From Alistipes finegoldii (GTDB taxonomy: Bacteria > Bacillota > Clostridia > Christensenellales > UBA1242), in NCBI GenBank assembly GCA_963614045.1, contig CAVEBU010000002.1:676-64675 (forward strand): DNA of 64,000 bases, read 5' to 3'. How positions within the stretch are numbered: the stretch's first letter is position 1; every line of letters starts with the position of its first letter. Under the pieces are notes generated by a model. It saw nothing but the letters and a program-made list of their open reading frames with translations, was not told where the DNA came from and made no database searches. Shown here piece after piece: positions 8,139 to 57,158 of this stretch. Position numbers and translations under genes: made by a program.

Positions 8139-8151
8139 TGTTACCACTGAT
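8134..8151. repeat. 18-nt inverted copy of the tRNA-Lys anticodon arm
   Basis: CCACTGATTAAGAGTCAG is the exact reverse complement of tRNA positions 8046-8063 (CTGACTCTTAATCAGTGG). Confidence 0.9.
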
Positions 8152-8271
8152 TAAGAGTCAGGAGTGGGGTACCCCGCAAAATTGAAGATTTTGTGGGGAG
8201 AGGAGGTACCAAGCGAGAATGAGCGTGCTTACTGTCCAAAAGGACTAAGCAAGCGAATTAGCGAAGTTTGT

Positions 8272-8419
8272 GTGCCGACGAAATCAGTGGGTCCAGAGTT
8301 CGCACCGTAACCGACTATTCGTCGCTTACTCTCACGGCCCGAACGCAAAACACATTTTTGCGTCCCGTTCGGGCTAAAAATTAGCCACTGGCTAATTTTC
8401 TTAACGCTTCACGCCCTGA
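8272..8419 (+). pseudogene. partial second copy of tRNA-Lys 3' half, interrupted in the T-loop by 113 nt
   Basis: 8272-8292 equals tRNA 8055-8075. Unrelated structured sequence follows at 8293-8405, and CTGATTGTCCACCA resumes at 8406. There is no 5' half. Confidence 0.75.
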
Positions 8420-8463
8420 TTGTCCACCAAGATAGGAAAAGATGCTGTAGTGGTGTCTTTTTT
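8406..8463. repeat. 58-bp direct repeat, copy 2
   Basis: Identical to 8081-8138. Confidence 0.9.
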
Positions 8464-8684
8464 TGTTACCACTAAATTTAAAAATTAAATTAAGTATATA
8501 ATGACTCGATTTTTGATTAAATAATTGTATAAATCAGCGAGCTGTTTGGGTAATTTGTAAAGTCGGTGGGGTGATTAGAATTTTTGCGGTAATTCTAATC
8601 ACATCAAAATTGAGTTCGATGGCGGGCATATTTTTGTTAAAATTCATAAAAAACTACTTAATTTCGTGTGATTTTAGTATAAAA

Positions 8685-10416: not shown

Positions 10417-10438
10417 TGCGTAGTACCTGCATAATACC
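10417..10438. repeat. two degenerate units of the 11-bp TGCATAGTACC motif
   Basis: TGCGTAGTACC TGCATAATACC, in a convergent intergenic region. Confidence 0.6.
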
Positions 10439-10538: not shown

Positions 10539-12374
10539 TTATTTTTCGGATTCGGTTGGAAGCGAGTCGAGTTTTTTCTTGCGTTTATGCAGGATGATTA
10601 AAACGATGATTGTTATCACGACACTGACCCCCATTAAAGCGAGTCCGATTATTTGCGCAGTGGTTAAGTTGCCGTTGTCCAAATTCTCCGATTTGCAATA
10701 GCCCGCTTTGATTGTTTCGGTTTCGCCCTCCGAAACAGAATATTCGATTTTGGACACTCCGTTTAGCGTGCTAATGATTTTTACCGAACTTCCTTTTGCC
10801 AAAACATCTACTTCGTTGAAGCAACTTTTTTCGCTATAGATAGTGGTTTCGGTATTGGTTTTTGCGTTCGGCACGTATTTCGAGTCGGCTACAACCAAAA
10901 TGCTTGAAACGAGCGTACGGCTGTCGATATAACCGATGTATTCGGTGCTATTTTTGGTGTATTTTACTGCAACAAAAGTTGCCCCGTTGCTATCGGCTGG
11001 CAGTATCGGACTTGCGATTATCCCGATTGTGTCGCCGTAATTCAACTGCCCCAAGCTTGCAACATACGTGTTAGTTGCGACCGCTTGGCTGATTGGCATA
11101 ACGAAAATTTTGGTCACGCCCGTAACAACTTTTCCCGCCTTGTTGTCGACGAATTCGCTAGCAATTTCGTTAGCGACCGTTTCGCAGTCGGTTTTTAGGA
11201 TATAACCCAAACTAAAGCCCTCCGAAGTTGCGCTATTATTGTCAAAAACGTAGTAAAATTGCGAATAACTATCATCCAAAAGTATTAATCGCTTGCCGAT
11301 TTCGTACTCAACGGCAGGGGATAGCAGGCTCGGAAATTGATACAGACGGGCGGTTTTAGTCGTTGAAACGGCGGAAATAACCGTCGTGCTTGCGGGAATA
11401 TTAGCAAGTCTGACTTTTGGGGCGATTTGTGAGTAATTTGTAACAAAATTCTCGTTATTTGCGTAAATCTCCGTCACAAACACCTCATTTTCGCTTGTTA
11501 TGTAGTAAATTTTTCCGTTCACGAAGTCGATATCGAAACTAATTGCATTATTAGGGAGCGATGCCGTCGTGGTGTTTGCGGGGTCATCGTTGTATTTAAA
11601 AATCGTGTTTTGATTGCCGTAGTAAATGTTGCCCAAATTGTCCGTATTTAGATATGTGATATTGCTTGAAGATGTCCCCGCTTCCGAAATTTCGTGAGTT
11701 TCTGTGTCAATTTTGTAGATTTTTGTGCCGATTGAGAAGTAAATCACCGAATTATCTTCCGTCACGCAAAATCCACCGCCCGCCTCGAAACTGAGTTTGG
11801 CTTCGTTGTATGTGAGTGTTTCAAAAAGTTCAAGTTGATTTTTGCTATCATTATAATATAGGATATTGTTGCCGAAAATCATATAAGTTATGCCGTCCGC
11901 ACTGCTTGTCAAAGTTTGTTGAGATAGAACGGCTTGGTCGTTCTCAGAATTTTCGATTTTGTACGAACTTAGACTCTGTTTGCTCGGCGCCGAAGTCGAA
12001 GCGTCAACCAAATCGACAAAAAGCGTCGTTGTGGAAACAAAATATTTTTCGCCAAGACTTACAATGTCGTACGGCTGAGTTTTCGTTTTGTCGTCAGTGC
12101 TGTCGGTGTTGTGAATAATCGTGTCGGCGGTGTCGGTATGCTTGATAACTTTTCTGCCGTCCGAATCGATTAGATAAACTGCGTTGTCAAAATAGCGCAC
12201 ACGAGTGAATTTCCCAACAGTGTAATTCTCAATAGCAATCTTAATTTGCGTGGTGTTCTTGAGTTCGTAGGCGGGGAGTTCTGCAAGCAAAATCGGTGCA
12301 ATCAAGCAACTTAGCAAAATCATAATTCCGCCACACAAACTGATTATAAAACCTAAATAAACTCTTTTCTTCAT
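10539..12374 (-). CDS. large surface protein, N-terminal signal/anchor and C-terminal TM anchor, function unknown
   Basis: 611 aa with a hydrophobic N-terminus and a C-terminal TM helix followed by HKRKKK. Repeated ..IYY/..IYK.. strands suggest a beta-propeller, and two C-terminal segments look SH3b-like (weak, by eye). Confidence 0.55.
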   Translation of the reverse strand: MKKRVYLGFIISLCGGIMILLSCLIAPILLAELPAYELKNTTQIKIAIENYTVGKFTRVRYFDNAVYLIDSDGRKVIKHTDTADTIIHNTDSTDDKTKTQPYDIVSLGEKYFVSTTTLFVDLVDASTSAPSKQSLSSYKIENSENDQAVLSQQTLTSSADGITYMIFGNNILYYNDSKNQLELFETLTYNEAKLSFEAGGGFCVTEDNSVIYFSIGTKIYKIDTETHEISEAGTSSSNITYLNTDNLGNIYYGNQNTIFKYNDDPANTTTASLPNNAISFDIDFVNGKIYYITSENEVFVTEIYANNENFVTNYSQIAPKVRLANIPASTTVISAVSTTKTARLYQFPSLLSPAVEYEIGKRLILLDDSYSQFYYVFDNNSATSEGFSLGYILKTDCETVANEIASEFVDNKAGKVVTGVTKIFVMPISQAVATNTYVASLGQLNYGDTIGIIASPILPADSNGATFVAVKYTKNSTEYIGYIDSRTLVSSILVVADSKYVPNAKTNTETTIYSEKSCFNEVDVLAKGSSVKIISTLNGVSKIEYSVSEGETETIKAGYCKSENLDNGNLTTAQIIGLALMGVSVVITIIVLIILHKRKKKLDSLPTESEK

Positions 12375-12595: not shown

Positions 12596-12624
12596 TTGAC
12601 AATGCGAAAAAGTTGTAATATATT
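12596..12624 (+). promoter_or_regulatory. sigma-A type promoter of the 12680 regulator
   Basis: TTGACA (12596-12601), 17 nt, TATATT (12619-12624). Confidence 0.55.
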
Positions 12625-12679
12625 TGATTTCGGAAAAGGGCAAAGAACTTTTTCGGGCAAATAAAAATAGGGGGCGCAA

Positions 12680-13222
12680 ATGAAAAAATTAGTATGGGCT
12701 AAGACGCTATTAGAATCTTACAGGTATCTATCTAGGGTGATTAAAAGCTTGGATAGATTGGTGGTGGAGCGGAGTGCAAAAAGTCACTCGGCGGGCTGGT
12801 ACGGAATGACTACGATGGAACAGATGGAGCAAATTATTGACTTGATTTTGCGTAAAAAACGACTGCAGACTGTCAAGATGCTGATTGAAGAATCGCTCAA
12901 AAATATGGAGCGAAATTCGGCGAGAGTGCTAGTAAAATTTTTTATGGAAAACGTCGATTTGGAGGATTTGGCGGAGGAGTATGGTGTCACAAAACGAACG
13001 ATGAATCGCAGGCTAAATTCTATGGCGCTTGACGTAATTGACAAGATTCGTGACTTGGGTTACGGGCTAGATAAGATAGAAATTTTGCTAGAAAACGAGG
13101 GCTGGATAATTGGAATTTTCAATAAATATGCAAGTCGATTTTCGGGCGAAAATGAGGTTAAACCACTGCTGTTGCCTTCGCTTCCGAGGATGGAAAGATT
13201 GTTTTGGCAATATTGCAAATGA
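12680..13222 (+). CDS. sigma-70 region-4-like HTH protein, putative phage late-gene regulator
   Basis: C-terminal ...LEDLAEEYGVTKRTMNRRLNSMALDVIDKI is a region-4-type HTH. It sits upstream of the terminase, as RinA/ArpU-type activators do. Confidence 0.45.
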   Translation: MKKLVWAKTLLESYRYLSRVIKSLDRLVVERSAKSHSAGWYGMTTMEQMEQIIDLILRKKRLQTVKMLIEESLKNMERNSARVLVKFFMENVDLEDLAEEYGVTKRTMNRRLNSMALDVIDKIRDLGYGLDKIEILLENEGWIIGIFNKYASRFSGENEVKPLLLPSLPRMERLFWQYCK

Positions 13223-13238
13223 GTGCTTGAAACGGGGG

Positions 13239-13282
13239 TGCATAGTACCTGCATAGTATGTGCATAGTACCTGCATAGTACC
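13239..13282. repeat. four tandem 11-bp units TGCATAGTACC
   Basis: TGCATAGTACC TGCATAGTATG TGCATAGTACC TGCATAGTACC, read directly from the sequence. Confidence 0.9.
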
Positions 13283-13312
13283 GTAAAATCGGCGTTTTTT
13301 GGGGGCAAAATC

Positions 13313-14128
13313 TTAAAAATCGAAGTCATTTACATCGGTTTTGTCGGGTAGTGAAATTTGGTTAAGCGACTTGATTTGACGTTTCGCTTGGGTGGAGCGA
13401 TTGCGTTTTGGCTTGATAATTAGTAACAAAATTATGACCGCTGGAATAGTAAGCAGAAGTATGAGAAGCAAGTTGTTTGTGCTACTAAGTTCGGGGGCGA
13501 GAATGTTGGCGCTCGTTTGAATTGTCGGCTCGAGTTGGACGACTTCGGTGTTCATTTCAAATGGTGTAAGAGCGGTCGTTAGCGAAGCGTGAACGTAACC
13601 GATTTTTGTGCCTCCGCCGCTTTCGACGAACTTGCACAAGTACCAAATTCCGTCGTCGCTAACGTTGATTTTTTGACCCGTTGTTGAACCGATATAGACA
13701 ATGTCGGTTGTGCCGTACGGGATACTTGTTAGGTATTCCGATTCGGTGGTCGGCTCAGCCCAAACGGTTGCGTTGGCGGTCTTGAGTAAGGCAAAAGTTT
13801 GCAAGCTAAAAGGTGTGGTTGGGGTAGAGTAAACGGGGGTGAGCGAATCGCTTTTGACCGCTCCCGAAATTCCCAAATACGTCACTGAAATGAACCCGTC
13901 AGCGAGTGTTTTTACGGGCTTGACGAAGTAGGTTGCTGGCAAGTTGCAAATCGCTGTTTCGGTTACAGTTTCGTCCTCGGAAATTTGGTACAAAATCGTA
14001 TTTTCGGCAGTAATTCTGTAAAAAACAGGGTCGGTTGAGCTTGCAAACGCAGGGGTCGGGCTTGCGATAAAAATTGCCAACAAAATGAATAAATATGCAG
14101 TATAAATGTATAAATATTTACGCATCAA
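13313..14128 (-). CDS. secreted/C-terminally anchored protein with two SH3b-like segments, function unknown
   Basis: Signal peptide ...ASPTPAFASS, a C-terminal TM helix followed by KPKRNRS, and an opposite-strand insertion between the regulator and terL. Confidence 0.5.
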   Translation of the reverse strand: MMRKYLYIYTAYLFILLAIFIASPTPAFASSTDPVFYRITAENTILYQISEDETVTETAICNLPATYFVKPVKTLADGFISVTYLGISGAVKSDSLTPVYSTPTTPFSLQTFALLKTANATVWAEPTTESEYLTSIPYGTTDIVYIGSTTGQKINVSDDGIWYLCKFVESGGGTKIGYVHASLTTALTPFEMNTEVVQLEPTIQTSANILAPELSSTNNLLLILLLTIPAVIILLLIIKPKRNRSTQAKRQIKSLNQISLPDKTDVNDFDF

Positions 14129-14248
14129 AAAATCTCCTTATAAAATTATAGCAAAACAGTAATTGATTTCAATATGCAATTATTGTTTTTTTTACGAGTT
14201 TTATACAAAAGTTAAACGAATTTTAAGAAAAAAACGAAAAGGTGAAGT

Positions 14249-15706
14249 ATGGATTTGCGAAAAGCGATTTGTGAGTTGGAGCAAGTTGATTTGGAAATCA
14301 AACGGCGAAAGCGGTGCAATAAACTTGCTGAATATAATACGGGCAAAAAAGTCCACTTAAAGCAGTTGGCTTTTCACAAATGCACAAAACGAAATCGCTG
14401 GGTTTTTGGAGGAAATCGAAGTGGCAAGTCGCAGTGCGGTGCGGTGGAAGTTGTTTGGCTTGCGAGAGGGAATCATCCGTATAAGCAAAACAAGTCGAGT
14501 ACGGACGGCTGGGTGGTTAGTTTGAGCCAACAAGTTCAGCGAGATGTGGCGCAACAGAAAATTTTGTACTATCTCAACCCCGACTGGATTGTGGACATTG
14601 TGATGTTGAGCGGGCGCAAAGATTCCGCAAGCAACGGGGTAATTGACTACATTTTGGTGCGTAATGTTTCGGGCGAAATTAGTAAAATCGGGTTCAAAAC
14701 TTGCGACCAAGGGCGTGAAAAATTTCAGGGAACGAGTCTTGATTATGTGTGGTTTGATGAAGAACCGCCGTTTGATATCTATTTGGAGTGTCGAATGCGT
14801 GTTTTGGACAAAGTTGGCGAAATTTTCGGCACGATGACACCGTTGAAGGGTTTGACTTGGGTTTATAACCACATTTATTTGAACGAAAGTGGCGACCCTG
14901 AAATTTGGTACGAAGAAATTGAGTGGGCGGACAATCCGTTTTTGGACGAAAAAGAAATTGCTTCGATGTCGCAAATTCTGTCGCCTGATGATTTGGAAAG
15001 TCGTCGTTACGGAAAATTTGCGAGCTACGGCGGTATGGTTTACAGCGAATTTCAAGAAAATTTGCATGTAATTGAGCCTTTTAACGTCCCGCCCGAGTGG
15101 TTTGACAAAATTAGCATTGATCCAGGTCTGCATAATCCGTTAAGTTGTCACTGGTATGCTGTTGACTATGACGGGAATATTTACGTAATTGCGGAACATT
15201 ACGAAGCTGGCAAAACTTTGGAGTATCACGCCTCAAAAATCATAGAAAAATGCGAAAAATTGGGGTGGAAGAAGGGTTTTAACGGCAAATATGAGTGCTT
15301 AATCGACTCGGCGGCGAATCAAAAGACACTTTCAGGGACGAAAAGCGTGGCGGAATTGTTCCTTGATTACGGAATTAACGTCAATACTTCGGTTAACAAG
15401 GACTTGCTGTCTGGAATTTCTCGGGTTAAAAGCTATTTGTTGAACGTAAATCACGAAACGAAGCTGTATATTTTCAAAAATTGCGTGAATATGATACGAG
15501 AAATCAAGGGGTATTGGTGGGGAAATGAAGATGCGCCAGTGAAAAAAGACGATCACGCAATGGACGATTTGCGTTATTACATAATGTCCCGCCCTGAAAA
15601 TGCGGTGCAAAAATCTCCACCGCTAAATGCGGTTCAGTTGCATAAACAAAAATTGATGAACAGGGTGCGACAACAAAATTTACACAGGAGGTGGTACGGT
15701 GATTGA
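14249..15706 (+). CDS. phage terminase large subunit
   Basis: Walker A GGNRSGKS and Walker B-like LDYVWFDEEP, plus a C-terminal nuclease-type segment ...DDHAMDDLRY; 485 aa. Confidence 0.9.
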   Translation: MDLRKAICELEQVDLEIKRRKRCNKLAEYNTGKKVHLKQLAFHKCTKRNRWVFGGNRSGKSQCGAVEVVWLARGNHPYKQNKSSTDGWVVSLSQQVQRDVAQQKILYYLNPDWIVDIVMLSGRKDSASNGVIDYILVRNVSGEISKIGFKTCDQGREKFQGTSLDYVWFDEEPPFDIYLECRMRVLDKVGEIFGTMTPLKGLTWVYNHIYLNESGDPEIWYEEIEWADNPFLDEKEIASMSQILSPDDLESRRYGKFASYGGMVYSEFQENLHVIEPFNVPPEWFDKISIDPGLHNPLSCHWYAVDYDGNIYVIAEHYEAGKTLEYHASKIIEKCEKLGWKKGFNGKYECLIDSAANQKTLSGTKSVAELFLDYGINVNTSVNKDLLSGISRVKSYLLNVNHETKLYIFKNCVNMIREIKGYWWGNEDAPVKKDDHAMDDLRYYIMSRPENAVQKSPPLNAVQLHKQKLMNRVRQQNLHRRWYGD

Positions 15707-15992
15707 CGAAAAAGATGCTGAAAAACTGACTAAATCGCTATTAAAAAAGGCGATTGGCTATACGGTTGACGAAGTCGTTGAGGAGTATGTAAACAGCGAA
15801 AATGCGGAAAATTTGCACTTAATTAAGCGAAAAATCACAAAAAAACACATTCCGCCCGACATTTCTGCGGTAAAAACGCTCTTGGAAACGACGGAAGACA
15901 ATTTTGAAAAATATCGAAAAATGAGTGATGAAGAATTGCTGAAAAAACGAGACGAGTTGCTAAAACAAATCTCAAAAGGAGGGAGCGGATGA
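15699..15992 (+). CDS. small phage protein, possibly small-terminase-related
   Basis: GTG start overlaps the terL stop, with an AGGAGG RBS. KKHIPPDISAVKTLLE resembles a conserved segment of some TerS proteins (weak). Confidence 0.3.
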   Translation: MIDEKDAEKLTKSLLKKAIGYTVDEVVEEYVNSENAENLHLIKRKITKKHIPPDISAVKTLLETTEDNFEKYRKMSDEELLKKRDELLKQISKGGSG

Positions 15993-16183
15993 AGGTATTT
16001 TTAACAAATAAGCGAGTTAAATGTACTGGGAAGGTCGACTGCAAAAATGAAATTTACTGCAATATCAAATTCAGCAAAGCGAGTATAAATTTGTGCAGGT
16101 CGTGTGCGGTGGAGTTGTACGAAAAGTTAGCCCAGTCGCTTGTGCCGAAATCGGTAAAAAGTAAATTTTATATGCAAAAATAA
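15989..16183 (+). CDS. small Cys-rich (putative zinc-ribbon) phage protein
   Basis: 64 aa; C-x5-C ... C-x2-C pattern; ATGA overlap with the upstream gene. Confidence 0.4.
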   Translation: MKVFLTNKRVKCTGKVDCKNEIYCNIKFSKASINLCRSCAVELYEKLAQSLVPKSVKSKFYMQK

Positions 16184-16201
16184 CGAAAAAGTGAGGTTTT
16201 T

Positions 16202-18124
16202 ATGCAAAAAAATCAAAAAATTGAGCAAAAAAGTAAATCTTCCAAGCAAAAAGAGTTGGTTGCTGAAATTAAGAAAGATTTCGAAAGGCGTCAAGAAGAA
16301 CGCAAGCCGTTCGATGCGCAGTGGCAACTTAATATGAATTTTGTGATGGGAAATCAGTACTGCGGAATCGGGCTAAATGACACTTTGGACGATTTCGACA
16401 AGCAGTACTTTTGGCAAGAGCGTGAAGTTTATAATCATTTGGCGCCGTTGGTTGAGACGAGGCTATCGAAATTGGCAAAAGTTCGTCCGACGATGACGGT
16501 TTTGCCCGCAAGTGCGGACGCTGACGATATAAATAACGCTCATATTTGCAAAAATATACTAAAAGCGGTCGCTGACAAGCTGGAATTGAGCGAACTTGTG
16601 GCGCAAGCGACTCGCTGGAGTGAGATTTGCGGTACGTCTTTCTACAAAATTATTTGGAACGATTCCGCAGGCTCTGTCGTTGGGCTAACGACTTTAGGGC
16701 AGAAAATTTACGAGGGCGATGTGGACATTATGGTTTGTTCGCCGTTCGAAATTTACCCCGATAGTAACACCGCAGAATCTCTCAGTGACTGCCAAAGTGT
16801 CATTCACGCACGTGCTTATGACGTTCGAACTATCAAAAAACACTGGGGTGTGGACATAAAAGGCGAGGATATTGACACCTATAATTTGCAAAATTCGCAA
16901 GTTGCGGGCGGTTTGGGGTACACCTCTCGGTCGGCAAAAGTGTCAAAAACGGTCAAACACAATCACGCAATGGTGATTGAGCGGTACGAAATGCCGAATA
17001 ATGAGTTCCCAAATGGGCGCTTGGTGATAATTGCGGGCGATGAATTGGTTTATGACGGAGATTTGCCATATTTGAATTTGCAAAACGGCGAAAGAGGTTT
17101 CCCGTTTGTTCGCCAAATCAGTACTGGTCAGCCGTCGTTGTTTTGGGGAACGAGTATAGTTGAGCGCTGTATTCCTATTCAAAGAGCATATAATGCGGTA
17201 AAAAATCGCAAACACGAGTTTATGAACAGGCTTTCTATGGGTGTTATGAGTGTGGAGGACGGCTCTGTCGATGTGGATAATTTGGAGGAAGAGGGCTTGA
17301 GTCCTGGCAAAGTCCTGATTTATAGACAAGGTTCTCGAGCTCCTCAAATGCTCACGAGTTCGAGTTTGCCGGTCGATTTTCGTGAAGAAGAAGAGAATTT
17401 GATATCAGAATTCCTTAATATTAGTGGTGTAAACGACCTTTTTGGCACAAATGCCGCCGCTTTGACTCAAATGAGTGGTGTCGCCCTGCAACTTTTGATT
17501 GAACAAGAGGATATGCGTGTGTCGGCGAGTGGCGAGTATATCAAATTTGCTCTAAAGGAAATCGGTCGCCAGATTTTGAGAATTTATAAGCAGTTCATTA
17601 CGACGCAAAGAATCAACAAAATTATCGGTGAAAACGGCTCAAGTGAGCTTTTTTACTGGGACGGAAGCGAAATTACTAGCGATGACGTTACTTTTGAAAC
17701 GGAAAGCGAACTTGGTGAAACTGTGGCGCAAAAGCGCAGTATGGTGTTTGATTTGTACAACGCAGGGCTTCTGCACGACGAAAATGGGAAAATGTCTAAC
17801 GCTATGCGCATAAAAGTTATGGAAATGTTGGGGCTTGGAATTTGGGAAAACGCTATGGACAACAATTCTCTGCAAGTCGAAAAAGCAAAACGAGAAAATA
17901 TTGAATTTGCTGAGGGCAAAGAGCCTGAAGTTCTTGAAATTCACGACCACGATTTGCATATAAATTCGCATATTGCATTTATGCTTGGTGCCGATTTTGA
18001 GAAATTAACAGCAAAGAAAAAGGATATTCGTGAAAAACTTTTGCAACACATTAGAAAGCACAAACAATTTAAAAGACTTACCATTAAAGCGGATAGCCAA
18101 ATGCTCCAAGAGGTAAGCAAATAA
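16202..18124 (+). CDS. phage portal protein
   Basis: 640 aa. The N-terminal FDAQWQLNMNFVMGNQY motif is typical of portal proteins, and the gene sits between terminase and scaffold. Confidence 0.85.
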   Translation: MQKNQKIEQKSKSSKQKELVAEIKKDFERRQEERKPFDAQWQLNMNFVMGNQYCGIGLNDTLDDFDKQYFWQEREVYNHLAPLVETRLSKLAKVRPTMTVLPASADADDINNAHICKNILKAVADKLELSELVAQATRWSEICGTSFYKIIWNDSAGSVVGLTTLGQKIYEGDVDIMVCSPFEIYPDSNTAESLSDCQSVIHARAYDVRTIKKHWGVDIKGEDIDTYNLQNSQVAGGLGYTSRSAKVSKTVKHNHAMVIERYEMPNNEFPNGRLVIIAGDELVYDGDLPYLNLQNGERGFPFVRQISTGQPSLFWGTSIVERCIPIQRAYNAVKNRKHEFMNRLSMGVMSVEDGSVDVDNLEEEGLSPGKVLIYRQGSRAPQMLTSSSLPVDFREEEENLISEFLNISGVNDLFGTNAAALTQMSGVALQLLIEQEDMRVSASGEYIKFALKEIGRQILRIYKQFITTQRINKIIGENGSSELFYWDGSEITSDDVTFETESELGETVAQKRSMVFDLYNAGLLHDENGKMSNAMRIKVMEMLGLGIWENAMDNNSLQVEKAKRENIEFAEGKEPEVLEIHDHDLHINSHIAFMLGADFEKLTAKKKDIREKLLQHIRKHKQFKRLTIKADSQMLQEVSK

Positions 18125-18167
18125 TCAAATTTGCTCGTCAGCAAACAAAAATCTTTAAGGAGTTTTT

Positions 18168-18962
18168 ATGCAAAATAATGATTTTTATACAGAACCAGCA
18201 AGTGAAGAAAATGGACAACAGGAAGAGGTTGACTTGGGTACTTTTAAGTCAGTAAAAACCTTAAAAGAAGCTTACGATTGTTTAAGAAAAGCGTTTACTC
18301 AAAACGCAATGAAGCTAGCGGAATACAAGAAAAATGAAAGCAAAAGTGAAGAAAGTGAAATTTCTGACGCAACTGAAAACTCTTCAAGAATTGATGAAAA
18401 TAGTGAAAAAACTATAAAAAATGATGAAAAAACAGCAAATTTCACTCAAAACAGTGAAACTTTGGAAAATTTGGGAATTAAAGAAACTGCTATTGAGTCA
18501 GACAAGGTGGAAGCCACCCCTGACTTGAATATGGAAAAAGTGGACAAAGATTTCTCTCCCACTTTGACTCGCTTTGAGGGTGAGGATTGGCAAAAGAAAA
18601 TACAAGATTTCTTTGCCGAAAATGAAGATGCGAGGCAATACGCAAAGGAAATTGGTTGCATAATTATGCAAAATGAAAACGTTCGTAATAGTGCTGACCC
18701 TTTGGATAAAGCGTGGATTAAAGTGTTGAAAAATAATTCCACAACTGCTATAGATGATACCAAATTAGAGCAGTATGTTTTGCAAAATGACGCATTAAAA
18801 CAAAAAGTTATTGAGCAATATTTAAAGGAATTACAACACAAAAAGTCTGCTCCCAAAGTAATTTCGGAGCGTGGCGGAACGCAAATGAATGCTACAAAAA
18901 CTCCTCACGCACTCAGTATGGCGGAAGCCAAGGAATTGGCAAAAAAGATTATGATTAAATAG
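18168..18962 (+). CDS. putative capsid scaffolding protein
   Basis: Acidic, low-complexity 264-aa protein located between portal and capsid genes. Confidence 0.5.
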   Translation: MQNNDFYTEPASEENGQQEEVDLGTFKSVKTLKEAYDCLRKAFTQNAMKLAEYKKNESKSEESEISDATENSSRIDENSEKTIKNDEKTANFTQNSETLENLGIKETAIESDKVEATPDLNMEKVDKDFSPTLTRFEGEDWQKKIQDFFAENEDARQYAKEIGCIIMQNENVRNSADPLDKAWIKVLKNNSTTAIDDTKLEQYVLQNDALKQKVIEQYLKELQHKKSAPKVISERGGTQMNATKTPHALSMAEAKELAKKIMIK

Positions 18963-18971
18963 GAGAAAATT

Positions 18972-20147
18972 ATGATTAGTTTAACAACTGCTCAAAATGC
19001 ACTGAAAAATGTGTATTTGGACGTCGTAAGTGAACAGCTGAATTTTCATGTTGACCCGATTTTTGCAATGATTAAGCAAAGTTCGGCTGATGTTTACGGC
19101 AAAAACATTATCAAACTTGTGCCATATGGAATAAATGGCGGTGTTGGTTCGGGAACGGAAGATGGCGCTTTGCCACCTTGCAAAGAGACTCATTATGTGA
19201 ATTTTTCATCAACACTTAAGAATTTATTCGGTACGATTGAAATTACTGACAAGGCTATTCGTGCTTCGGAAAACGACGAGGGCGCTTTTGTGAATTTACT
19301 GTCTGCGGAGATGGAAAGTCTGCTTTCTGCAAGCAAATTCAACCTAGAGCGTATGTTTTACGGCGATTCTACGGGTTCTTTGGCAAATATTACCGAAATT
19401 AGCAACGCTTCTAAATATTTTGTGGCGGACAATGTTGCGCCTTTCGAGACGGGAATGTTGCTTGATTTTTACAATAACGGGGTACTTGACGCAAATATGA
19501 CGGGTGTTCGGGTGGTGACTGTGGATCGCACGAACAAAAAAGTTGTACTTGACAAGGTTTCCACGAATTTTACGACTGCAAATTTGAGCAAATACAAATG
19601 CTATGTTCAAGGTAGTAAAGACAACGAATTGACGGGTTTGGGCGAGATTTTCGGCTCAAGTACCACACTTTACGGGCTAAATCGTGCTGATTATAAGGCT
19701 TTAATGCCATATTCGGCCACTCAGGGCGCTAGTACGACTTTGAGCGAAAGCTTTATTCAAGAGTGTTTGGATGATGTCGAATTGTGTTCGGGCTATCAAC
19801 CTCAAATTATGGTTGCGTCGCCTGACGCTTATTACTCTTTAGTAAAATTGATTATGTCTTACACGAAAAATGTGGAGGCGGTGAACCTAAAATGCGGTGT
19901 TACAAGTGTCGCTTATAATGGAATTCCGCTCACACGCAATAAATATGTCAGCCCTAAAACCGTTTTAATGTTGAATCCTGACTTGTTTACGCTTCACCAA
20001 TTGTGCGATTGGGAGTGGCTAACAAGCAATAATGGTGCAATTCTGACGCAAAAAGAGGGTTATCCTACATATTCGGCAACTTTGGTAAAATATGCGGACC
20101 TAATTTGTAATCGCCCTAACGCACAGGGTAAGATTACTTTGGTCTAA
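18972..20147 (+). CDS. phage major capsid protein, paralog 1
   Basis: 391 aa in the position after the scaffold. The C-terminal ...LHQLCDWEWL...YSATLVKYADLICNRPNAQ pattern is typical of HK97-type MCPs. Confidence 0.8.
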   Translation: MISLTTAQNALKNVYLDVVSEQLNFHVDPIFAMIKQSSADVYGKNIIKLVPYGINGGVGSGTEDGALPPCKETHYVNFSSTLKNLFGTIEITDKAIRASENDEGAFVNLLSAEMESLLSASKFNLERMFYGDSTGSLANITEISNASKYFVADNVAPFETGMLLDFYNNGVLDANMTGVRVVTVDRTNKKVVLDKVSTNFTTANLSKYKCYVQGSKDNELTGLGEIFGSSTTLYGLNRADYKALMPYSATQGASTTLSESFIQECLDDVELCSGYQPQIMVASPDAYYSLVKLIMSYTKNVEAVNLKCGVTSVAYNGIPLTRNKYVSPKTVLMLNPDLFTLHQLCDWEWLTSNNGAILTQKEGYPTYSATLVKYADLICNRPNAQGKITLV

Positions 20148-20161
20148 GAGGGGGTAATTAT

Positions 20162-21340
20162 ATGATTTCATTAAAAACAGCGGACAGCGCTCTCAAAAAT
20201 GTGTATTTGGAAGTGCTAAAGAACCAGTTTGACTACAATGTTGACCCATTTTTTAGTCAAATTGAGAAAACAAGCAACGATATTTCGGGCGGAACGGTTT
20301 GCAAAATAGTTTCGCCAGGTGTAAATGGCGGAATTGGTGCTGGTGCTGAAACTGGCAGTTTGCCGTCTGCGGTTGGGGCAAGTTATGTGAAACTTACCGC
20401 TCCGCTTAAGAATTTGTATGCGCAAATCGAGATTTCAGACAAGGCTTTGCGTGCTTCAGCAAACGATTCGGGTGCTTTTGTGAACCTTTTGAATGCTGAA
20501 ATGGATAATTTGATAGAATCGAGCAAGTTCAATATGCGTCGAATGATTTACGGCGACGGCTCAACAAGTATGGGCGAAGTTTTGGATTATACTTTAAACA
20601 GTCCTACATATAAAGTGGAAAATATTGAAAGATATATCGTCGGAATGCGAGTAAACGGCACAATTGACGCTCTAACTGTGACAAATATGAACGATTTGGA
20701 TGTTTTGGACGTCGATTATGTGAACAGCAAAATAACTGTGGAAAGCAGGGGAGTTCTGACTTCTGATGTTGAAGACGACGAGGTTTTTGAAATTTGTTTA
20801 ACCAACAATTACCACCCAATTACTGGTATTGGCAAGCATTTTTCGGTGAAAAACGGCACAATTTTTGGTATTGCAAAGGAAGAAAATGAATTTATGATGC
20901 CAAATTGGGTCAGCGTTGCTAGTTCAAAATTTGATTACATTTCGCTTTTGCAAGCGATTGATATGACAAGAATGGACAAGGGTGCTAACACTGATTTTAT
21001 CGTAACCAGCTTCGATTTTCGCCGTACAGTGCAAAAATTGCTGAAAAATAACGCAATTAACTGCGATTTGCAGGTGTTGGAGGGTGGCTTCCGCACGTTG
21101 AGTATTGACGGCGTTCCTCTATATGCTAATAGATTTATACCAGAGAGGACGGCTTATTTGCTTGATTCAAGTTCGTTTGCGTTACATCAATTATGTGATT
21201 GGTCGTGGTTGACAAACGATAAAGGCGAAATTTTACGACAAAAAGAGGGTTATGCGGCACATAATGCGACTTTGGTTAAATATTGCGAGCTAATTCCTAA
21301 CAAAATGAGTTCTAACACAAAAATTTTGTTAACTCAATAA
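20162..21340 (+). CDS. phage major capsid protein, paralog 2
   Basis: 392 aa, colinear with 18972-20147. About half the positions are identical in the segments I aligned by eye (MISL.TA..ALKNVYL.V...; LHQLCDW.WLT...G.IL.QKEGY....ATLVKY). Confidence 0.8.
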   Translation: MISLKTADSALKNVYLEVLKNQFDYNVDPFFSQIEKTSNDISGGTVCKIVSPGVNGGIGAGAETGSLPSAVGASYVKLTAPLKNLYAQIEISDKALRASANDSGAFVNLLNAEMDNLIESSKFNMRRMIYGDGSTSMGEVLDYTLNSPTYKVENIERYIVGMRVNGTIDALTVTNMNDLDVLDVDYVNSKITVESRGVLTSDVEDDEVFEICLTNNYHPITGIGKHFSVKNGTIFGIAKEENEFMMPNWVSVASSKFDYISLLQAIDMTRMDKGANTDFIVTSFDFRRTVQKLLKNNAINCDLQVLEGGFRTLSIDGVPLYANRFIPERTAYLLDSSSFALHQLCDWSWLTNDKGEILRQKEGYAAHNATLVKYCELIPNKMSSNTKILLTQ

Positions 21341-21357
21341 CAAAAAGTGAGGTTTTT

Positions 21358-21738
21358 ATGGCGTTAATCAAGATTTTTAGCGATGTTTTTGATATCGCTC
21401 AGCGAGTAAAAGAGATAGATTCGGGCTATTTTATTGTTTATAATACAAAAAAACACAGGTATGAAGTGCATAATAGTCACCAATTCGGGTCAACTTTCTG
21501 TATAGTTTGCGATAGCGGGTTGAATAGCACTGTAATTACAAAGTTAAGAAAGTCAAAAATCGAGAACATAGACAAGATTTTGCGTGAAATTGATGAAAAT
21601 AACGCAAAAAATGAGCAAAATGTAGCAAAAAAGCTGAAAAATGAGGCTTCTTTTAAGCTAAAGGAAATGTTTGATTACGCAAAGAAACGGGAGTCCGATA
21701 GTGATTTTAGCGAAAGTTATAAGACTATTTGGGCGTAA
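21358..21738 (+). CDS. phage protein, unknown function
   Basis: 126 aa. Its translation-initiation region is identical to that of the portal gene (AAAAAGTGAGGTTTTTATG). Confidence 0.5.
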   Translation: MALIKIFSDVFDIAQRVKEIDSGYFIVYNTKKHRYEVHNSHQFGSTFCIVCDSGLNSTVITKLRKSKIENIDKILREIDENNAKNEQNVAKKLKNEASFKLKEMFDYAKKRESDSDFSESYKTIWA

Positions 21739-21753
21739 ATAGGAGGTTAATAA

Positions 21754-22326
21754 ATGACTGTTTTAGATGTTGTAAAATTGGTTGCGCAATATATTGGTGA
21801 TGCAGATTTGCTGTCAACGACGACACTTGGCGGGCAAACGTCACCGACTGAACAGCAAACAAGCAAAATAAACACGTTAGTTAGTTGTGTTAATGATACT
21901 GTGCAAAATTTGGCGATTATGTATTTCCCACTCAAAAAAGAGGAAGTTGTGACCAGTTCAAACGGTTCGTATTCGTTTACTCTATTTTCAAAGCCGTTGC
22001 TTGATATTCTCAAAATTGTGGACAATCGGCTTAAATTTTCGGTAGATTATGCTATGTTTCCTGATTATTTTGAGTCAAAAGCGGGCAGTTTGTTCGTTTC
22101 ATACACATATTTGCCGAGCGAAGTTAGTTCGATGTCCTCAAAATTAGAGGTTGTGGAGAATAAAGTTACTGCCAGGATGATTGCGTTGGGTGTTGCGAGT
22201 AGATATTTTTTGATTGTTGGAATGTATCAAGACGCAAACAACTGGAACGAAATGTTTGAGCGTGCGATTTTGGTGGCTCAAAGAAGAAAAGACAACATAG
22301 TTCTCAAAAAGAGAAGGTGGTTATAG
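21754..22326 (+). CDS. phage structural protein, possible head-tail connector
   Basis: 190 aa; the call rests only on position after the capsid genes. Confidence 0.3.
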   Translation: MTVLDVVKLVAQYIGDADLLSTTTLGGQTSPTEQQTSKINTLVSCVNDTVQNLAIMYFPLKKEEVVTSSNGSYSFTLFSKPLLDILKIVDNRLKFSVDYAMFPDYFESKAGSLFVSYTYLPSEVSSMSSKLEVVENKVTARMIALGVASRYFLIVGMYQDANNWNEMFERAILVAQRRKDNIVLKKRRWL

Positions 22327-23811
22327 GTGTTTTATAAGCAAAAAATACCTCAAAATACCAAATCTAACGTGAAAATTCAGCTAACTGACTTTTCGAAAGG
22401 AATTAACACACAAATTACACAAAATCTTTTGCCATTGAATTATGCTGTAAATAGTTACAATTTTGACTTCAATAAGCGCAGTTTGGCGACAGGACTTGGG
22501 ATTAAGGAGTTGTCGATTCCTTATAGTGAGACGCTTTCAAAGTCTTTCGTGCCGTCCGATTCGGTACATCAGCTTTACAGATTTTGGCAATATACGAAAT
22601 ACGACGAAACGTCAGACAGCTATATTCCGTTGCTAATGTTGTATGGCGATGACGAATTTTTGTATTATGCGAGGCTAAAAACTAGCCAAACGAACTTCAA
22701 TTTGCTAAATGTGACATTTCCGGATATTCCGAACGGTCTTAACTATAGAACGGACGACGGCGACTGCTTTTATGCGTGCGGTGATAGTAAAATTGTGAAA
22801 TTTTCGGCTTCGACGACGGAAACTTTCAGTGATAGCGTACCTAGAATTACCTCAATAGCGCTTCACGCAGGCAGACTTTTTGCTACAGTTAACGGCGACC
22901 AAAATGTTGTTTGGTTTAGTGATGACCTTGACCCAACTAACTGGAAAGTTAGCAGTTTTGAGGGCGGTTACATCGAATTAACGGGCGAAAGGGGAGTTTG
23001 CAAAAAGGTTATTGAAGCAAATAATTTGCTTTACGTGATTCGGGAGTACGGTATCAGTAAAATTTCTGGCTGGGGCTTGCAGGACGATTTTGTTGTCAAA
23101 AATATGTATTTAACGACGGGAAAATTGTATCACGAAACTGCAAGATTATGCGGTCGAATTGTGATAATGCTTTGTACCGACGGACTGTATTATTTCGACG
23201 GAAGCAGTATGAATAAGATAAATTTGGGCATTGAAGAAATGTTTGCTGGAGTCGACAATAGCAGTGCTTTTGGGGCTTTTTTGGACGGAAAATACTATTT
23301 AGCGTGCAAAATGAACTATAATGACGGGGTTTTTGTGGGGTGTGAGAGCAATTCTTATGTAAATAACACCTTGCTAGAACTCGACCTCAACACCTTCGAT
23401 ATCAACATTTTGCGGGGCGTTGATGTGGTTTATATGGACGGTATAAGATTTAATAATTATACAAAATTAGGTATAATATTAAACGGCACAAACGGGAATA
23501 AATTATATGAATTGACGCACACTGGCGAAGTGAACGGAGTGGCAACGTCGAAATATTGGTGTTCACCGCTGACGGATATGGGGTATCCAAATTATCGCAA
23601 GGCGATTAAGAGTTTGACGATAAATACAAAGACGGATATAACTGTGATTTTTGATGCTGACGGCAAGAAGTATAGTTTCGCTGTCAAGGGAAGTGATGTT
23701 CCGTCGAAAATTCCGATTAATATTTTTTGCTCAAAATTCAGCGTGGCATTTTCTTGTGCGACAAAAGCGTGTGAAATTTCCGACCCGCTAATTCAAGTTG
23801 CGTTGGTGTAG
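22327..23811 (+). CDS. phage structural protein, unknown (possible short-tail/neck component)
   Basis: 494 aa with a GTG start abutting the upstream stop. Repeated beta-strand-like motifs; no family recognised. Confidence 0.3.
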   Translation: MFYKQKIPQNTKSNVKIQLTDFSKGINTQITQNLLPLNYAVNSYNFDFNKRSLATGLGIKELSIPYSETLSKSFVPSDSVHQLYRFWQYTKYDETSDSYIPLLMLYGDDEFLYYARLKTSQTNFNLLNVTFPDIPNGLNYRTDDGDCFYACGDSKIVKFSASTTETFSDSVPRITSIALHAGRLFATVNGDQNVVWFSDDLDPTNWKVSSFEGGYIELTGERGVCKKVIEANNLLYVIREYGISKISGWGLQDDFVVKNMYLTTGKLYHETARLCGRIVIMLCTDGLYYFDGSSMNKINLGIEEMFAGVDNSSAFGAFLDGKYYLACKMNYNDGVFVGCESNSYVNNTLLELDLNTFDINILRGVDVVYMDGIRFNNYTKLGIILNGTNGNKLYELTHTGEVNGVATSKYWCSPLTDMGYPNYRKAIKSLTINTKTDITVIFDADGKKYSFAVKGSDVPSKIPINIFCSKFSVAFSCATKACEISDPLIQVALV

Positions 23812-23818
23812 GTAGTAT

Positions 23819-24253
23819 ATGGATTATATATTAAATGATTTGATTGATAGGGTTGATATGCTTGAGAATCTGGTGTATCAATTGAAAAAAGATTGTCTAA
23901 ATATGCCGTTTAGTCAGTTTGTAAAGCAAGATTTAACTCAAACTTTTACAATTTCGGGAGCGAATTCTTTTGAAATTGGGAGCTTGAGCGGTGTAGGTAG
24001 TGCTGAAATTTATATTTTATGTAAAATTAGTTGTTCGGTTGAAACTGAGGTGTTCGTCGATATTGGGAATTCTGTGGAGTGTAGCAAGAAAGTTGCTTCG
24101 AACAGCCAAAATTCGATATGCACATTTGCAATTAAAACTAGCGATATAGGGAGCGTTAAATTGAGAATTGAAAATAGTTCGATTACGGGGTCTATAAGCG
24201 AAATTAGTGTAATTGTGAGCAAAAATGCGACATTTAGTAGTGTTTTTGCATAA
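23819..24253 (+). CDS. phage protein, unknown function
   Basis: 144-aa ORF with tight spacing to the upstream gene. Confidence 0.4.
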   Translation: MDYILNDLIDRVDMLENLVYQLKKDCLNMPFSQFVKQDLTQTFTISGANSFEIGSLSGVGSAEIYILCKISCSVETEVFVDIGNSVECSKKVASNSQNSICTFAIKTSDIGSVKLRIENSSITGSISEISVIVSKNATFSSVFA

Positions 24254-24261
24254 AATTGGGT

Positions 24262-24295
24262 AGTACTATGCACTGCATAGTACCTGCATAGTACT
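24262..24295. repeat. TGCATAGTACC motif: one inverted unit followed by two direct units (palindromic core)
   Basis: AGTACTATGCA-C-TGCATAGTACC-TGCATAGTACT, about 100 bp upstream of the 24399 ATG. Confidence 0.85.
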
Positions 24296-24398
24296 GTTTA
24301 AAGGTCGTGAAATATGGTAAAATATAGTAAATTATATGGCAAAATTTTATTAAAACAGAAAAGGTTTGAAATATATTTAAAGAGTAAAGGAGGAAATT

Positions 24399-25289
24399 AT
24401 GTCAACGGAAAATATCTTAGATGAAACTATGAAAAATGAACAAAAAATGTCAAAATCCACTGAAAATTTTGATATTGAAGGGATTAAAGTTGCTTTGGAA
24501 GGGATTGAAAAGAAGTATGAGGCGGAATATCCGAGCTTGAATCCTGATGAAAGCACTATGCCTCAGTATAAGGATAATTCTTCAAAGAGTTATGAGGAGA
24601 TTTCACAAGAAGCAAAAGAGGCTTTGAGTGAGTATCAAATGTCAAATATTGGGCAAATTCAGGACGAATATGCTGAAAAAATGCAAGAATTGAACCTAAA
24701 AGAGCAAAAAATCAATATGGAATCCGATTATGACACCGAAGATTTGAAAGCTGAAGCGCAGTTGGAGTTGGAGAAAAAGAAAGCCGACCTAATTTCGCAA
24801 GGAATTGAACGCAGTAGTATTGCGCAAAATTCCAAGCAGGCAGTAGTTTCGCAATATGACAGCGAGTTAATAAGGGCGATTGAGGAAAAGCAAATAGCGA
24901 TTTCGGAAATTGAACTCAAACGCTCAATGCTTCAAAACGATATGAACGCCGCTTTGGAGAAATTCGACATCGCTTACGCTTCAAAATTGGAGAGTAAAAT
25001 TGAGGAACTGTCCAAAAAATACGACGAGGAAATGATTGCGCTTGAAAAGTACAATGCGAAAATTTCTGAACTTCGTAACGCAAGAAATCAAGAGTGGGCG
25101 AAGTGGGTGAAGGAAAAAACTTCCGAGATTGATGCCACAAAATCTCGCAAAAAAGTGGAATATTTGGTAGATGTAATCAAAAATTTGTCAAAAGAAGAGG
25201 CGCAAGCATTAATGCGTGACCAAGAAATCATCGATTCTTTGGGTGATTATTATCAAATCGTCCTCGATTTTGCAAACCGCAGAAGGTAG
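24399..25289 (+). CDS. coiled-coil phage protein, unknown function
   Basis: 296 aa, E/K/Q-rich heptad-like sequence, AGGAGG RBS. Confidence 0.45.
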   Translation: MSTENILDETMKNEQKMSKSTENFDIEGIKVALEGIEKKYEAEYPSLNPDESTMPQYKDNSSKSYEEISQEAKEALSEYQMSNIGQIQDEYAEKMQELNLKEQKINMESDYDTEDLKAEAQLELEKKKADLISQGIERSSIAQNSKQAVVSQYDSELIRAIEEKQIAISEIELKRSMLQNDMNAALEKFDIAYASKLESKIEELSKKYDEEMIALEKYNAKISELRNARNQEWAKWVKEKTSEIDATKSRKKVEYLVDVIKNLSKEEAQALMRDQEIIDSLGDYYQIVLDFANRRR

Positions 25290-25292
25290 TTT

Positions 25293-25793
25293 ATGAACGA
25301 TTTATTAAAAGACAAACTAAAATCTTATAGCTTTTGGGTGTCGTTAGCAAGTGCGATTTTACTTTTGGTGCAAACCATCGGCAGACCGTTGGGTTTGGTA
25401 ATTGACGAATCGACTTATATGTCAATTGTAAATAGCGTTTTGGGTGTGTTTGTCGTGCTGGGAATTATTAGTCATCCCGCACAAAATTTGTTAAAAACTA
25501 GCACAACACAACATGAAGAAATTACTGAAGATGAGAAAACAAATTCAAAAGATGAAAATGCTAAAAATGATGACTATGTTGCAAAAAATAGCGGGAATAC
25601 TGCAGAAAATTGCGGGATAGTCGCAAAAAATTGCACTTCATCATCCGAAAATGAGGGGCTAGTGATAGATTCTAAAAGCGGTTGCGATGGCGGTGAAATT
25701 GATACTTCTAATAATGAGAATAGCGACTTAAAAGACTTGTCGAGCGAACGAATTCAGCAAGCAAAACAAGATTTTATCAACTTATATAAGTAG
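25293..25793 (+). CDS. phage holin-like protein with long C-terminal tail
   Basis: Two TM helices lie in the first ~65 aa (FWVSLASAILLLVQTIG, VLGVFVVLGIISHP), arranged as in phi-LC3/SPP1-type holins. It is the last gene of the cluster. Confidence 0.6.
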   Translation: MNDLLKDKLKSYSFWVSLASAILLLVQTIGRPLGLVIDESTYMSIVNSVLGVFVVLGIISHPAQNLLKTSTTQHEEITEDEKTNSKDENAKNDDYVAKNSGNTAENCGIVAKNCTSSSENEGLVIDSKSGCDGGEIDTSNNENSDLKDLSSERIQQAKQDFINLYK

Positions 25794-25800
25794 TTGAATT

Positions 25801-25824
25801 GAGGGGGCACGCCCCCTCTTTTTT
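25801..25824. terminator. bidirectional intrinsic terminator
   Basis: GAGGGGGC-AC-GCCCCCTC followed by TTTTTT, between convergent genes. Confidence 0.8.
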
Positions 25825-48159: not shown

Positions 48160-48213
48160 TTTTTTACCCTTTGCTTATATTTTTATCATTTAGTGCTTGA
48201 CGGCTCAGGGAGT

Positions 48214-57149: not shown

Positions 57150-57158
57150 GAGAAAAAT

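Follow-up and report, generated by a model that had tools for sequence, protein, structure and literature searches.

A cluster of phage-derived packaging, head, short-tail, and holin genes was analyzed in a 64-kb stretch of DNA (positions 676-64,675 of contig CAVEBU010000002.1, referred to below as the window) from a genome named Alistipes finegoldii and placed by GTDB in the Christensenellales. The whole element, including two genes on the minus strand, occupies 10.5-25.8 kb of the window, and the length of the cluster is ~11.5-15 kb. Pfam, PHROG, and NCBIfam scans covered most open reading frames (ORFs) of at least 110 aa as well as the flanks of related loci. The PDB was searched with sequence profiles and, by Foldseek, with AlphaFold2 models. 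Relatives were sought in one genome per GTDB species and were found in at least 590 species-representative genomes; 80 loci were kept for comparison. These related loci carry L-numbers where one has to be singled out, L016 being the closest relative in the comparison of synonymous (pS) and nonsynonymous (pN) divergence. Coordinates refer to the window, and genes lie on the plus strand unless the minus strand is given.

The large terminase TerL (14249-15706) matched Pfam Terminase_6N/6C and phrog_2. Motifs that were at least 90% conserved among 56 orthologues (Walker A GGNRSGK, WFDEEPP, TMTP, SIDPG, IDSAAN, and DDHxxDxLRYY) represent both the ATPase, with Walker A and B, and the nuclease. The identity of TerL across related loci was 57-89%, and its score against the PBSX-family model of NCBIfam was 41.5 bits, with a cut-off of 105. 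The gene after TerL encodes a truncated TerS-like protein of 97 aa (15699-15992; phrog_309, TerS, 1.3e-6). Its residues 9-67 align to positions 197-247 of the 319 positions of phrog_309, i.e. to the C-terminal part only, and the same C-terminal part was matched by 19 of 32 TerS-like orthologues. No N-terminal DNA-binding domain was recognisable in the TerS-like protein, and the profile search of the PDB gave no sequence match for it. It is followed by a zinc-ribbon-like Cys4 mini-protein of 64 aa (15989-16183) without a Pfam or PHROG family match, the four cysteines of which (Cys12, Cys18, Cys36, and Cys39) are conserved in 15 orthologues.

The portal protein (16202-18124) is of the P22/SU10 type, as evident from matches to Pfam P22_portal (1.6e-22) and SU10_portal (5.9e-8) and to phrog_156 (6.6e-35); its omega against L016 was 0.02. 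The following 264-aa protein (18168-18962) had no Pfam or PHROG family match and is presumed to be the scaffold from its position between the portal and capsid genes. In relatives this slot holds a gene for 190-300 aa, the fastest-diverging of the cluster. The two major capsid proteins (MCPs), MCP1 (18972-20147) and its paralogue MCP2 (20162-21340), are 38% identical to each other. MCP1 matched the NCBIfam model NF033394 capsid_maj_Podo (1.7e-63, 215 bits) and phrog_14242 (3.5e-40). MCP2 matched NF033394 capsid_maj_Podo with 170 bits, and the only other capsid model that it hit was the HK97 model TIGR01554, below threshold. MCP1 hit no second NCBIfam capsid model, and neither protein matched N4-gp56 in NCBIfam at E <= 0.1. 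Homologues of MCP1 fall into more than 5700 clusters at 90% identity and occur on contigs of up to 700 kb. Two MCPs are present in 20 of 86 loci, all in a single subclade. Because MCP2 sequences are monophyletic, with a branching order that mirrors that of the MCP1 subtree, we deduce one old duplication of the capsid gene with retention of both copies. A conserved protein of 126 aa (21358-21738), possibly involved in head completion or decoration, is found in ~73-78 loci and also in the phage-like L131; it had no PDB, Pfam, or PHROG match.

For the 494-, 190-, 126-, 97-, and 144-aa proteins and the DUF7934 protein described below, PDB sequence-profile searches yielded nothing useful, and the 494- and 190-aa proteins were resolved only by predicted structures. 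The AlphaFold2 model of the 190-aa protein (21754-22326; pLDDT 91.8) was matched by Foldseek to the head-to-tail adaptors of KHP30, Pa223 (9nwi_A, TM-score 0.66), SU10 (7z47_B), N4, DEV, crAss001, PhiM1, and T7 (gp11), and a weak Pfam match to SU10_adaptor pointed in the same direction. The 494-aa protein (22327-23811; pLDDT 86, pTM 0.86) was modeled as a beta-propeller with a C-terminal beta domain and matched the Pa223 tail (9nwi_Y, 1e-19, TM-score 0.70), VP1, GP4, the PhiM1 nozzle, the P22 tail complex, SU10, and T7, identifying it as a tail nozzle (hub). The nozzle family comprises 2342 representatives at 50% identity. Together, portal, adaptor, and nozzle are predicted to make up the core of a short podovirus tail.

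The slot after the nozzle is variable. In the window it holds a 144-aa protein (23819-24253) without a PDB match, the sole detectable homologue of which, in L007, is 26% identical; L001 has a 346-aa coiled-coil protein in this slot, and L004 has tiny ORFs. A role of the 144-aa protein as needle, plug, or receptor-binding protein is only a guess. Next comes a 296-aa coiled-coil-rich protein of the DUF7934 family (24399-25289; Pfam PF25588, 2e-15), which is kept before the holin in ~29 loci and gave PDB profile matches to coiled coils only. The holin (25293-25793; Pfam Phage_holin_1, 27 bits at a cut-off of 22; phrog_297, 8.3e-13) terminates the cluster in ~51-61 loci. In a group of related loci (L001 17523-19429 and 9-15 others), two proteins of ~314 and 316 aa without a Pfam match are encoded between the holin and RNase J genes. 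They could also belong to the element, e.g. as a lysin or a fibre, and they are absent from the 64-kb window.

An earlier sequence-only reading of this DNA had listed a sigma-like regulator, TerL with a TerS-like ORF behind it, the Cys4 protein, the portal, two MCPs, a coiled-coil protein, and a holin; the ORFs and the HMM scans place them where it had put them. Its scaffold call stands for the slot between portal and capsid genes, with position as its basis. Two of the four ORFs that it had left unassigned are now accounted for by the 190-aa adaptor and the 494-aa nozzle, and the 126- and 144-aa proteins stay without an assigned role. Its statement that no tail gene was present has to be withdrawn, as adaptor and nozzle form a short-tail core. 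The co-oriented genes that it listed are real, but it missed the minus-strand gene within their range (13313-14128) and the conserved neighbour of the cluster at 10539-12374.

These two minus-strand genes encode surface proteins. The 271-aa protein (13313-14128, minus strand), the gene of which is divergent from TerL, has a signal peptide, two SH3b-like repeats, and a C-terminal membrane anchor. A 28-orthologue alignment gave weak but consistent PDB matches to the autolysin SH3b domains 4krt, 6bim, 2kt8, and 2kyb; the gene is present in ~50 loci, with an omega of ~0.11 against L016. The 611-aa protein (10539-12374, minus strand) combines an N-terminal signal or transmembrane segment, an NHL/PknD-like beta-propeller (PDB profile matches to Pizza/PknD propellers, 7e-5), SH3b-like repeats, and a C-terminal membrane anchor. 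A gene for 583-704 aa lies at the same place and in the same orientation in L001, L004, L007, L009-L013, L041, L054, and L067. Wall binding, reception, or immunity as functions of the two SH3b-like proteins are speculation.

The 80 kept loci come almost all from metagenome-assembled genomes (MAGs) of Clostridia, and the informative names among them (Christensenella sp., Candidatus Onthoplasma, and CAG:917) belong to the Christensenellales. The best match among those listed was Christensenella sp. UBA4651, with an MCP identity of 87%. Gene order is conserved: regulator, minus-strand SH3b gene, TerL, TerS-like gene, portal, scaffold, MCP, 126-aa gene, adaptor, nozzle, variable slot, DUF7934, and holin. 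All copies not cut by contig ends were intact, full-length ORFs (56/56 for TerL, 73/73 for the portal, and 86/86 for the MCP). Compared with L016, pS was 0.46-0.78 and thus near saturation, pN was 0.04-0.23, and omega was 0.02-0.22 where dS could be computed. The more two loci differ in MCP, portal, and TerL, the more their neighbouring host genes differ as well (Spearman 0.8-0.9 for pairwise divergence), and TerL and the adjacent SigE-like sigma factor are equally conserved; vertical inheritance was judged here from this pairwise divergence of element and host genes and from shared flanks. The comparison across related genomes that the sequence-only reading had proposed yielded synteny, conservation, and purifying selection, with no frameshifted TerL, portal, or MCP among uncut copies, and bears out its argument from intact frames against decay.

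Flanking families are shared as well. Common to 9-25 loci are SpoIIGA, a SigE-like sigma factor, a polysaccharide deacetylase, and an SSB-like protein upstream, and the two unknown proteins mentioned above and RNase J downstream; SpoIIGA, the SigE-like sigma factor, the deacetylase, the SSB-like protein, and RNase J are all absent from the 64-kb window. The window and L049 have OGG upstream and a Gate protein downstream in common, though their MCPs are just 47% identical; L049 lies between L21/OGG/NfeD/FloA and SDR/peptidase M1 genes. A DegV-TetR flank is common to L143 and the window. Intact ORFs, low pN, divergence that tracks the host, and shared flanks therefore form the pattern of a host gene set and not that of a mobile or decaying prophage. 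In an Onthoplasma-like clade (L017, L030, and ~13-25 others), the cluster lies directly downstream of the SpoIIGA, SigE-like, deacetylase, and 205-aa SSB-like genes. The 205-aa SSB-like gene is a median of 189 bp away from the cluster and could belong to the element. A link to sporulation, hinted at by the SpoIIGA/SigE-like setting, is speculation.

The cluster is headed by a 180-aa regulator (12680-13222) with a domain resembling region 4 of sigma factors. The profile of 30 orthologues matched region 4 of extracytoplasmic function (ECF) sigma factors (3hug, 6e-5; 6dv9, 3e-4), so that "sigma-like" is a fair label. The PHROG matches were to families of transcriptional regulators or activators, and the match to NCBIfam sigma70-ECF (1.3e-3) was under the cut-off of that model. 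Upstream of the gene, TTGACA-17-TATATT (12596-12624, plus strand) agrees with the sigma-70-like promoter in 11 of 12 positions, a match to the consensus only. The PBSX late operon of Bacillus subtilis is driven by the sigma-like factor Xpf; the regulator is analogous to Xpf and to late activators of phages.

An AU-rich hairpin with a stem of 12-13 bp followed by a run of eight T (14153-14193, plus strand) lies 56 nt upstream of the TerL start and resembles a terminator or attenuator. It is kept in nine distinct loci, with 6-8 U after the stem, and has a folding energy of -10.9 kcal/mol (z = -2.9). In the alignment, 108 of 108 cells pair, and all five one-sided substitutions lead to G-U on the plus strand. 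This agrees with a transcribed terminator or attenuator and hence with control of the antitermination type, of which the hairpin may be a target. Since a promoter match for the divergent 271-aa gene on the minus strand overlaps the hairpin, it could instead act as an operator.

Phased copies of the 10-mer TGCATAGTAC were found in three arrays: two copies with 11-bp spacing in the stretch that separates the TetR-like gene from the 3' end of the 611-aa gene (10417-10437), four between the stop codons of the regulator and 271-aa genes (13239-13281), and three, one of them inverted, ~100 nt upstream of the DUF7934 gene (24263-24294). Nine of ten matches in the window fall in these arrays, all of which are in or beside the cluster; shuffled sequences averaged 2.5 matches. 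Arrays matching the position at 13239 also occur in L010, L014, L016, and L143, and those matching the position at 24263 in L007, L009, L010, L011, L014, L015, and L083. A metagenome scan showed TGCATAGTAC arrays with 11-bp phasing between housekeeping genes as well, near clpX/uppP/era, ftsA-ftsZ, plsY/der, and a SpoIIR-like gene, on contigs L139, L140, L147, and L149, which probably stem from one related genome. The idea that the arrays are sites of a cluster-specific regulator or pac sites was downgraded on that account. They are enriched in the cluster without being exclusive to it and may be sites of a host regulator or a REP-like repeat.

As the sequence-only reading had stated, the cluster is flanked by housekeeping and membrane genes. 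Pfam matches upstream were inositol monophosphatase, OGG, an NYN-domain protein, MurA-like and FtsQ-like proteins, alanine racemase (Alr), PGI, DegV, and a TetR-like regulator, with a tRNA-Lys gene among them; those downstream were a Gate-domain membrane protein, an EEP nuclease, an M50 peptidase, ScpA/B, BipA, and GroEL, together with a 580-aa protein without matches and a tRNA cluster. Its further claim that integrase, repressor, replication module, and lysin are missing from cluster and flanks was confirmed: no integrase, repressor, replication gene, or endolysin was detected anywhere in the 64-kb window by the Pfam, PHROG, and NCBIfam scans, and integrase, replication gene, and repressor were not found in the examined flanks of related loci either. 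The 3' part of tRNA-Lys(CTT) and the sequence following it are duplicated at 8029-8473 (8065-8085 equals 8282-8302, and 8091-8148 equals 8416-8473), 2.3 kb upstream of the 611-aa gene. The duplication resembles a scar left at the tRNA by some earlier integration. As an att site of the cluster it was rejected, both copies being upstream, 217-325 nt apart, and not bracketing the cluster.

Farther downstream, a low-GC island (55500-63000; 27-29% versus ~40% elsewhere) looks like a defence island and encodes two D12-class adenine methyltransferases, a DpnII restriction endonuclease, a GmrSD-type endonuclease, and an AAA_15/AbiEii-like ATPase. A RhuM-family protein (42880-43902, minus strand) and an HTH_3 regulator (45924-46514) were also noted, and two large ORFs of 510 and 586 aa at 46627-49974 (minus strand) had no Pfam match.

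We conclude that the cluster is probably a domesticated, podovirus-derived "viriform" resembling a gene transfer agent (GTA) and vertically inherited in the Christensenellales. It is most likely neither a prophage nor a satellite nor a decaying remnant and is kept intact across hundreds of Christensenellales gut species. The data show which parts are present, that these are intact and conserved, how they are set in the chromosome, and that genes for lysogeny and replication are lacking. Two features that define GTAs are present. The chromosome carries head and packaging genes of phage type with no modules for replication, integration, or immunity, and, to judge from the divergence correlation and shared flanks, the cluster is passed on vertically within a host clade while purifying selection acts on it. 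Among the three options of the sequence-only reading, the GTA-like one is favoured by the housekeeping setting and host-tracking divergence; the satellite is disfavoured by the lack of integrase, att sites, and replication genes and by the nozzle that the cluster encodes itself, and the decayed prophage is not sustained. The Foldseek search that it had suggested as a test for connector or short-tail proteins did find adaptor and nozzle; no integrase was detected in the 64 kb.

In the mechanism that we propose, the regulator with its sigma-region-4-like domain would turn on the operon from TerL to holin, with transcription proceeding past the leader hairpin. A procapsid would be built from portal, presumed scaffold, and capsid proteins, two capsid paralogues contributing in this subclade, and TerL would fill it by a headful mechanism with the truncated TerS-like protein as partner. 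Because this partner has no DNA-binding domain, packaging of mostly non-specific chromosomal DNA would be expected. Adaptor and nozzle would then seal the portal vertex with a stubby tail, and the holin would release the particles with the help of a host autolysin or of a lysin whose gene lies elsewhere.

The nearest counterpart is FpGTA of Faecalibacterium prausnitzii, a podovirus-like GTA with a 10.5-kb operon, capsids of ~40 nm, packaged DNA of 8.4-8.9 kb, and a TerS without a DNA-binding domain (PMC12946183, Nat Commun 2026). Like the cluster, FpGTA is a chromosomal operon of a Gram-positive gut anaerobe, encodes TerL, portal, scaffold, MCP, and short-tail-type proteins, has a TerS without an obvious DNA-binding domain, lacks lysogeny and replication genes, and is nearly ubiquitous in its host clade; podovirus-like or seemingly tailless capsids are expected in both cases. 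The short-tailed architecture and the TerS without a DNA-binding domain are thus features of FpGTA that recur here. However, the FpGTA MCP (RCH50849.1; portal RCH50851.1) is named N4-gp56 family by NCBI, whereas the MCPs of the cluster belong to NF033394 capsid_maj_Podo. Because the MCP families differ in name, orthology is unlikely and independent domestication likely; to judge from these family assignments, the cluster is probably analogous to FpGTA and not orthologous to it. Fibre, receptor-binding protein, holin, and endolysin of FpGTA are encoded in a second operon 125 kb away, whereas the holin is inside our cluster and neither fibre nor lysin is encoded in the window. In addition, the cluster differs from FpGTA in having two MCP paralogues in its clade, a linked sigma-like regulator, and two linked SH3b-like surface proteins.

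RcGTA of Rhodobacterales and CcGTA of Caulobacter are likewise domesticated head and packaging clusters that are inherited vertically under purifying selection, with a TerS without sequence-specific DNA binding, accessory genes at other loci, and release by holin and lysin. RcGTA, however, is siphovirus-like with tail tube, tape measure, and prohead protease, none of which was found in the cluster, the tail proteins of which have podovirus folds; past shared HK97-type machinery there is no sequence relationship. With P22-like and SU10/Pa223-type podophages the cluster shares the P22-type portal, the adaptor and nozzle folds, and the lack of a prohead protease, and the gene order of P22 (terminase, portal, scaffold, coat, adaptor, hub) is also that of the cluster. 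Unlike these phages, it lacks a tailspike or fibre as well as genes for integrase, immunity, and replication; needle and ejection proteins were not recognisable, and its TerS is truncated and located after TerL. The complete virion and the lysogeny, replication, and lysis modules of a functional P22- or SU10-like prophage were not found. The closest phages in GenBank showed at most 25% identity for the MCP (actinophages) and at most ~30% for TerL, and the nozzle had no match in GenBank phages. Our search of the literature found no description of this Christensenellales cluster.

Several points weigh against a GTA-like particle. Evidence for the cluster consists of genes and predicted structures; particle production, non-specific packaging, release, and DNA delivery are deduced from them. 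By definition, a GTA packages essentially random host DNA in pieces shorter than the DNA that encodes the particle, which for this cluster is a prediction. Nearly all genomes are MAGs, and the comparison covers the locus and its flanks. No endolysin, tail fibre or spike, ejection protein, or needle was recognised within the 64-kb window, and the 64-, 126-, 144-, and 296-aa proteins and the presumed scaffold are without an assigned role. IMG/VR lists 52 related contigs as viral, most of which carry the same cluster. Finally, a subclade (L021, L028, L035, L036, L046, L049, and L062) has no TerL in the locus, which starts at the TerS-like gene directly after housekeeping genes. This suggests a split locus as in other GTAs, but the subclade could instead have lost packaging.

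The main rival reading, a domesticated particle that serves some purpose besides gene transfer, is rather unlikely in our judgement. Such a particle would be a PBSX-like killer or a device for lysis or DNA release; host DNA would be packaged and not productively delivered, and the benefit would be lysis, extracellular DNA, or killing. The holin as a constant part of the cluster would suit it, as would the failure to recognise a fibre, receptor-binding, or ejection protein in the cluster, whereas the phage-like relative L131 carries a fibre of 1394 aa. For FpGTA, too, the authors left undecided whether it delivers DNA or behaves like PBSX (PMC12946183). The strong conservation of TerL motifs, portal, adaptor, and nozzle, however, implies that selection maintains a DNA-filled particle with a closed exit channel, and the slot after the nozzle varies in the manner of a receptor-binding module. 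PBSX resembles the cluster as a chromosomal phage-like element of a Firmicute that packages host DNA and is released by lysis. Yet its killing depends on a contractile myovirus tail with sheath, tube, and baseplate, and Xre repressor and endolysin are encoded in its cluster; none of these was detected here.

We consider it improbable that the cluster is part of a still autonomous element, whether a capsid-forming satellite or a temperate podophage in cryptic form, with integrase, replication, lysis, and fibre genes that lie elsewhere or are too divergent to be recognised. The viral classification of the 52 IMG/VR contigs, the conserved ORFs without assignment, and the partial duplication of the tRNA-Lys 3' end 2.3 kb from the 611-aa gene could be read in this way. 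So could L131, a 60-kb IMG/VR contig with a 40% identical MCP, which looks like a genuine phage. Its order is HNH gene, TerL, portal, scaffold, MCP, homologue of the 126-aa protein, SU10_adaptor protein (2.5e-12), nozzle-like protein, and the fibre, which has Phage_fiber_2 and CBM_4_9 domains. By hhalign, the nozzle profile matched the 463-aa protein of L131 (E 7e-5, but only 63% probability); the adaptor profile did not match the SU10_adaptor-positive protein. L131 may be a free-living cousin of the ancestor, and it shows what the domesticated cluster has lost, namely the HNH gene and the fibre. Against autonomy stand the absence of integrase, replication gene, and repressor from the 64 kb and the examined flanks of relatives, tRNA-derived repeats that do not bracket the cluster, the same neighbourhood in genomes with MCPs of just 47% identity, and divergence that follows host genes. 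As regards satellites, capsid-forming phage-inducible chromosomal islands (cf-PICIs) possess an integrase, regulatory genes, a primase-replication module, and att sites and make use of helper-phage tails. The cluster resembles them as a small chromosomal island with its own terminase, portal, and capsid and an incomplete tail, but no integrase, att pair, replication module, or sign of dependence on helper tails was found in the window. With its own adaptor and nozzle, it needs no helper tail, unlike cf-PICIs. A decaying prophage remnant without function, which would account for the missing lysogeny, replication, fibre, and lysin modules, is effectively refuted by core ORFs that are all intact in dozens of species, saturated synonymous sites with low pN, conserved catalytic motifs, and an old capsid duplication kept with mirrored phylogenies.

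GTA-like packaging of chromosomal fragments was described for the Christensenellaceae MAGs HGM11616 (~4.1 and 7.1 kb) and QANA01 (~6.3 kb) without a locus being assigned (PMC12946183). The reported sizes (~4-7 kb) are smaller than the 11.5-15 kb of the cluster, which is a candidate source of this packaging. A bolder version of the GTA-like viriform can be offered only tentatively: an independent, order-wide domestication of a podovirus would have given rise to a working organelle for DNA packaging and exchange that is the unassigned source of the 4-7-kb packaging seen for Christensenellaceae in virus-like particles from human faeces. In this organelle, MCP1 and MCP2 would be specialised in the one subclade that has both (e.g. 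for hexamers and pentons, cf. gp23 and gp24 of T4), the particle would be fibreless with the SH3b-like surface proteins as its wall-side partner, and the arrays with 11-bp phasing would wire it into a host regulon.

Very few GTA-like elements have been characterised, mostly from Alphaproteobacteria, and FpGTA (2026) is the sole podovirus-like example and the sole one from human gut commensals. The retained capsid duplication and the minimal, fibreless tail offer material for studies of capsid building and of virus domestication. The cluster also gives a concrete locus for the GTA-like packaging that was observed in Christensenellaceae and left unassigned. Christensenellales are prominent, hard-to-culture gut bacteria, and a particle-forming locus conserved across hundreds of species would be a major candidate route of gene flow in this order.

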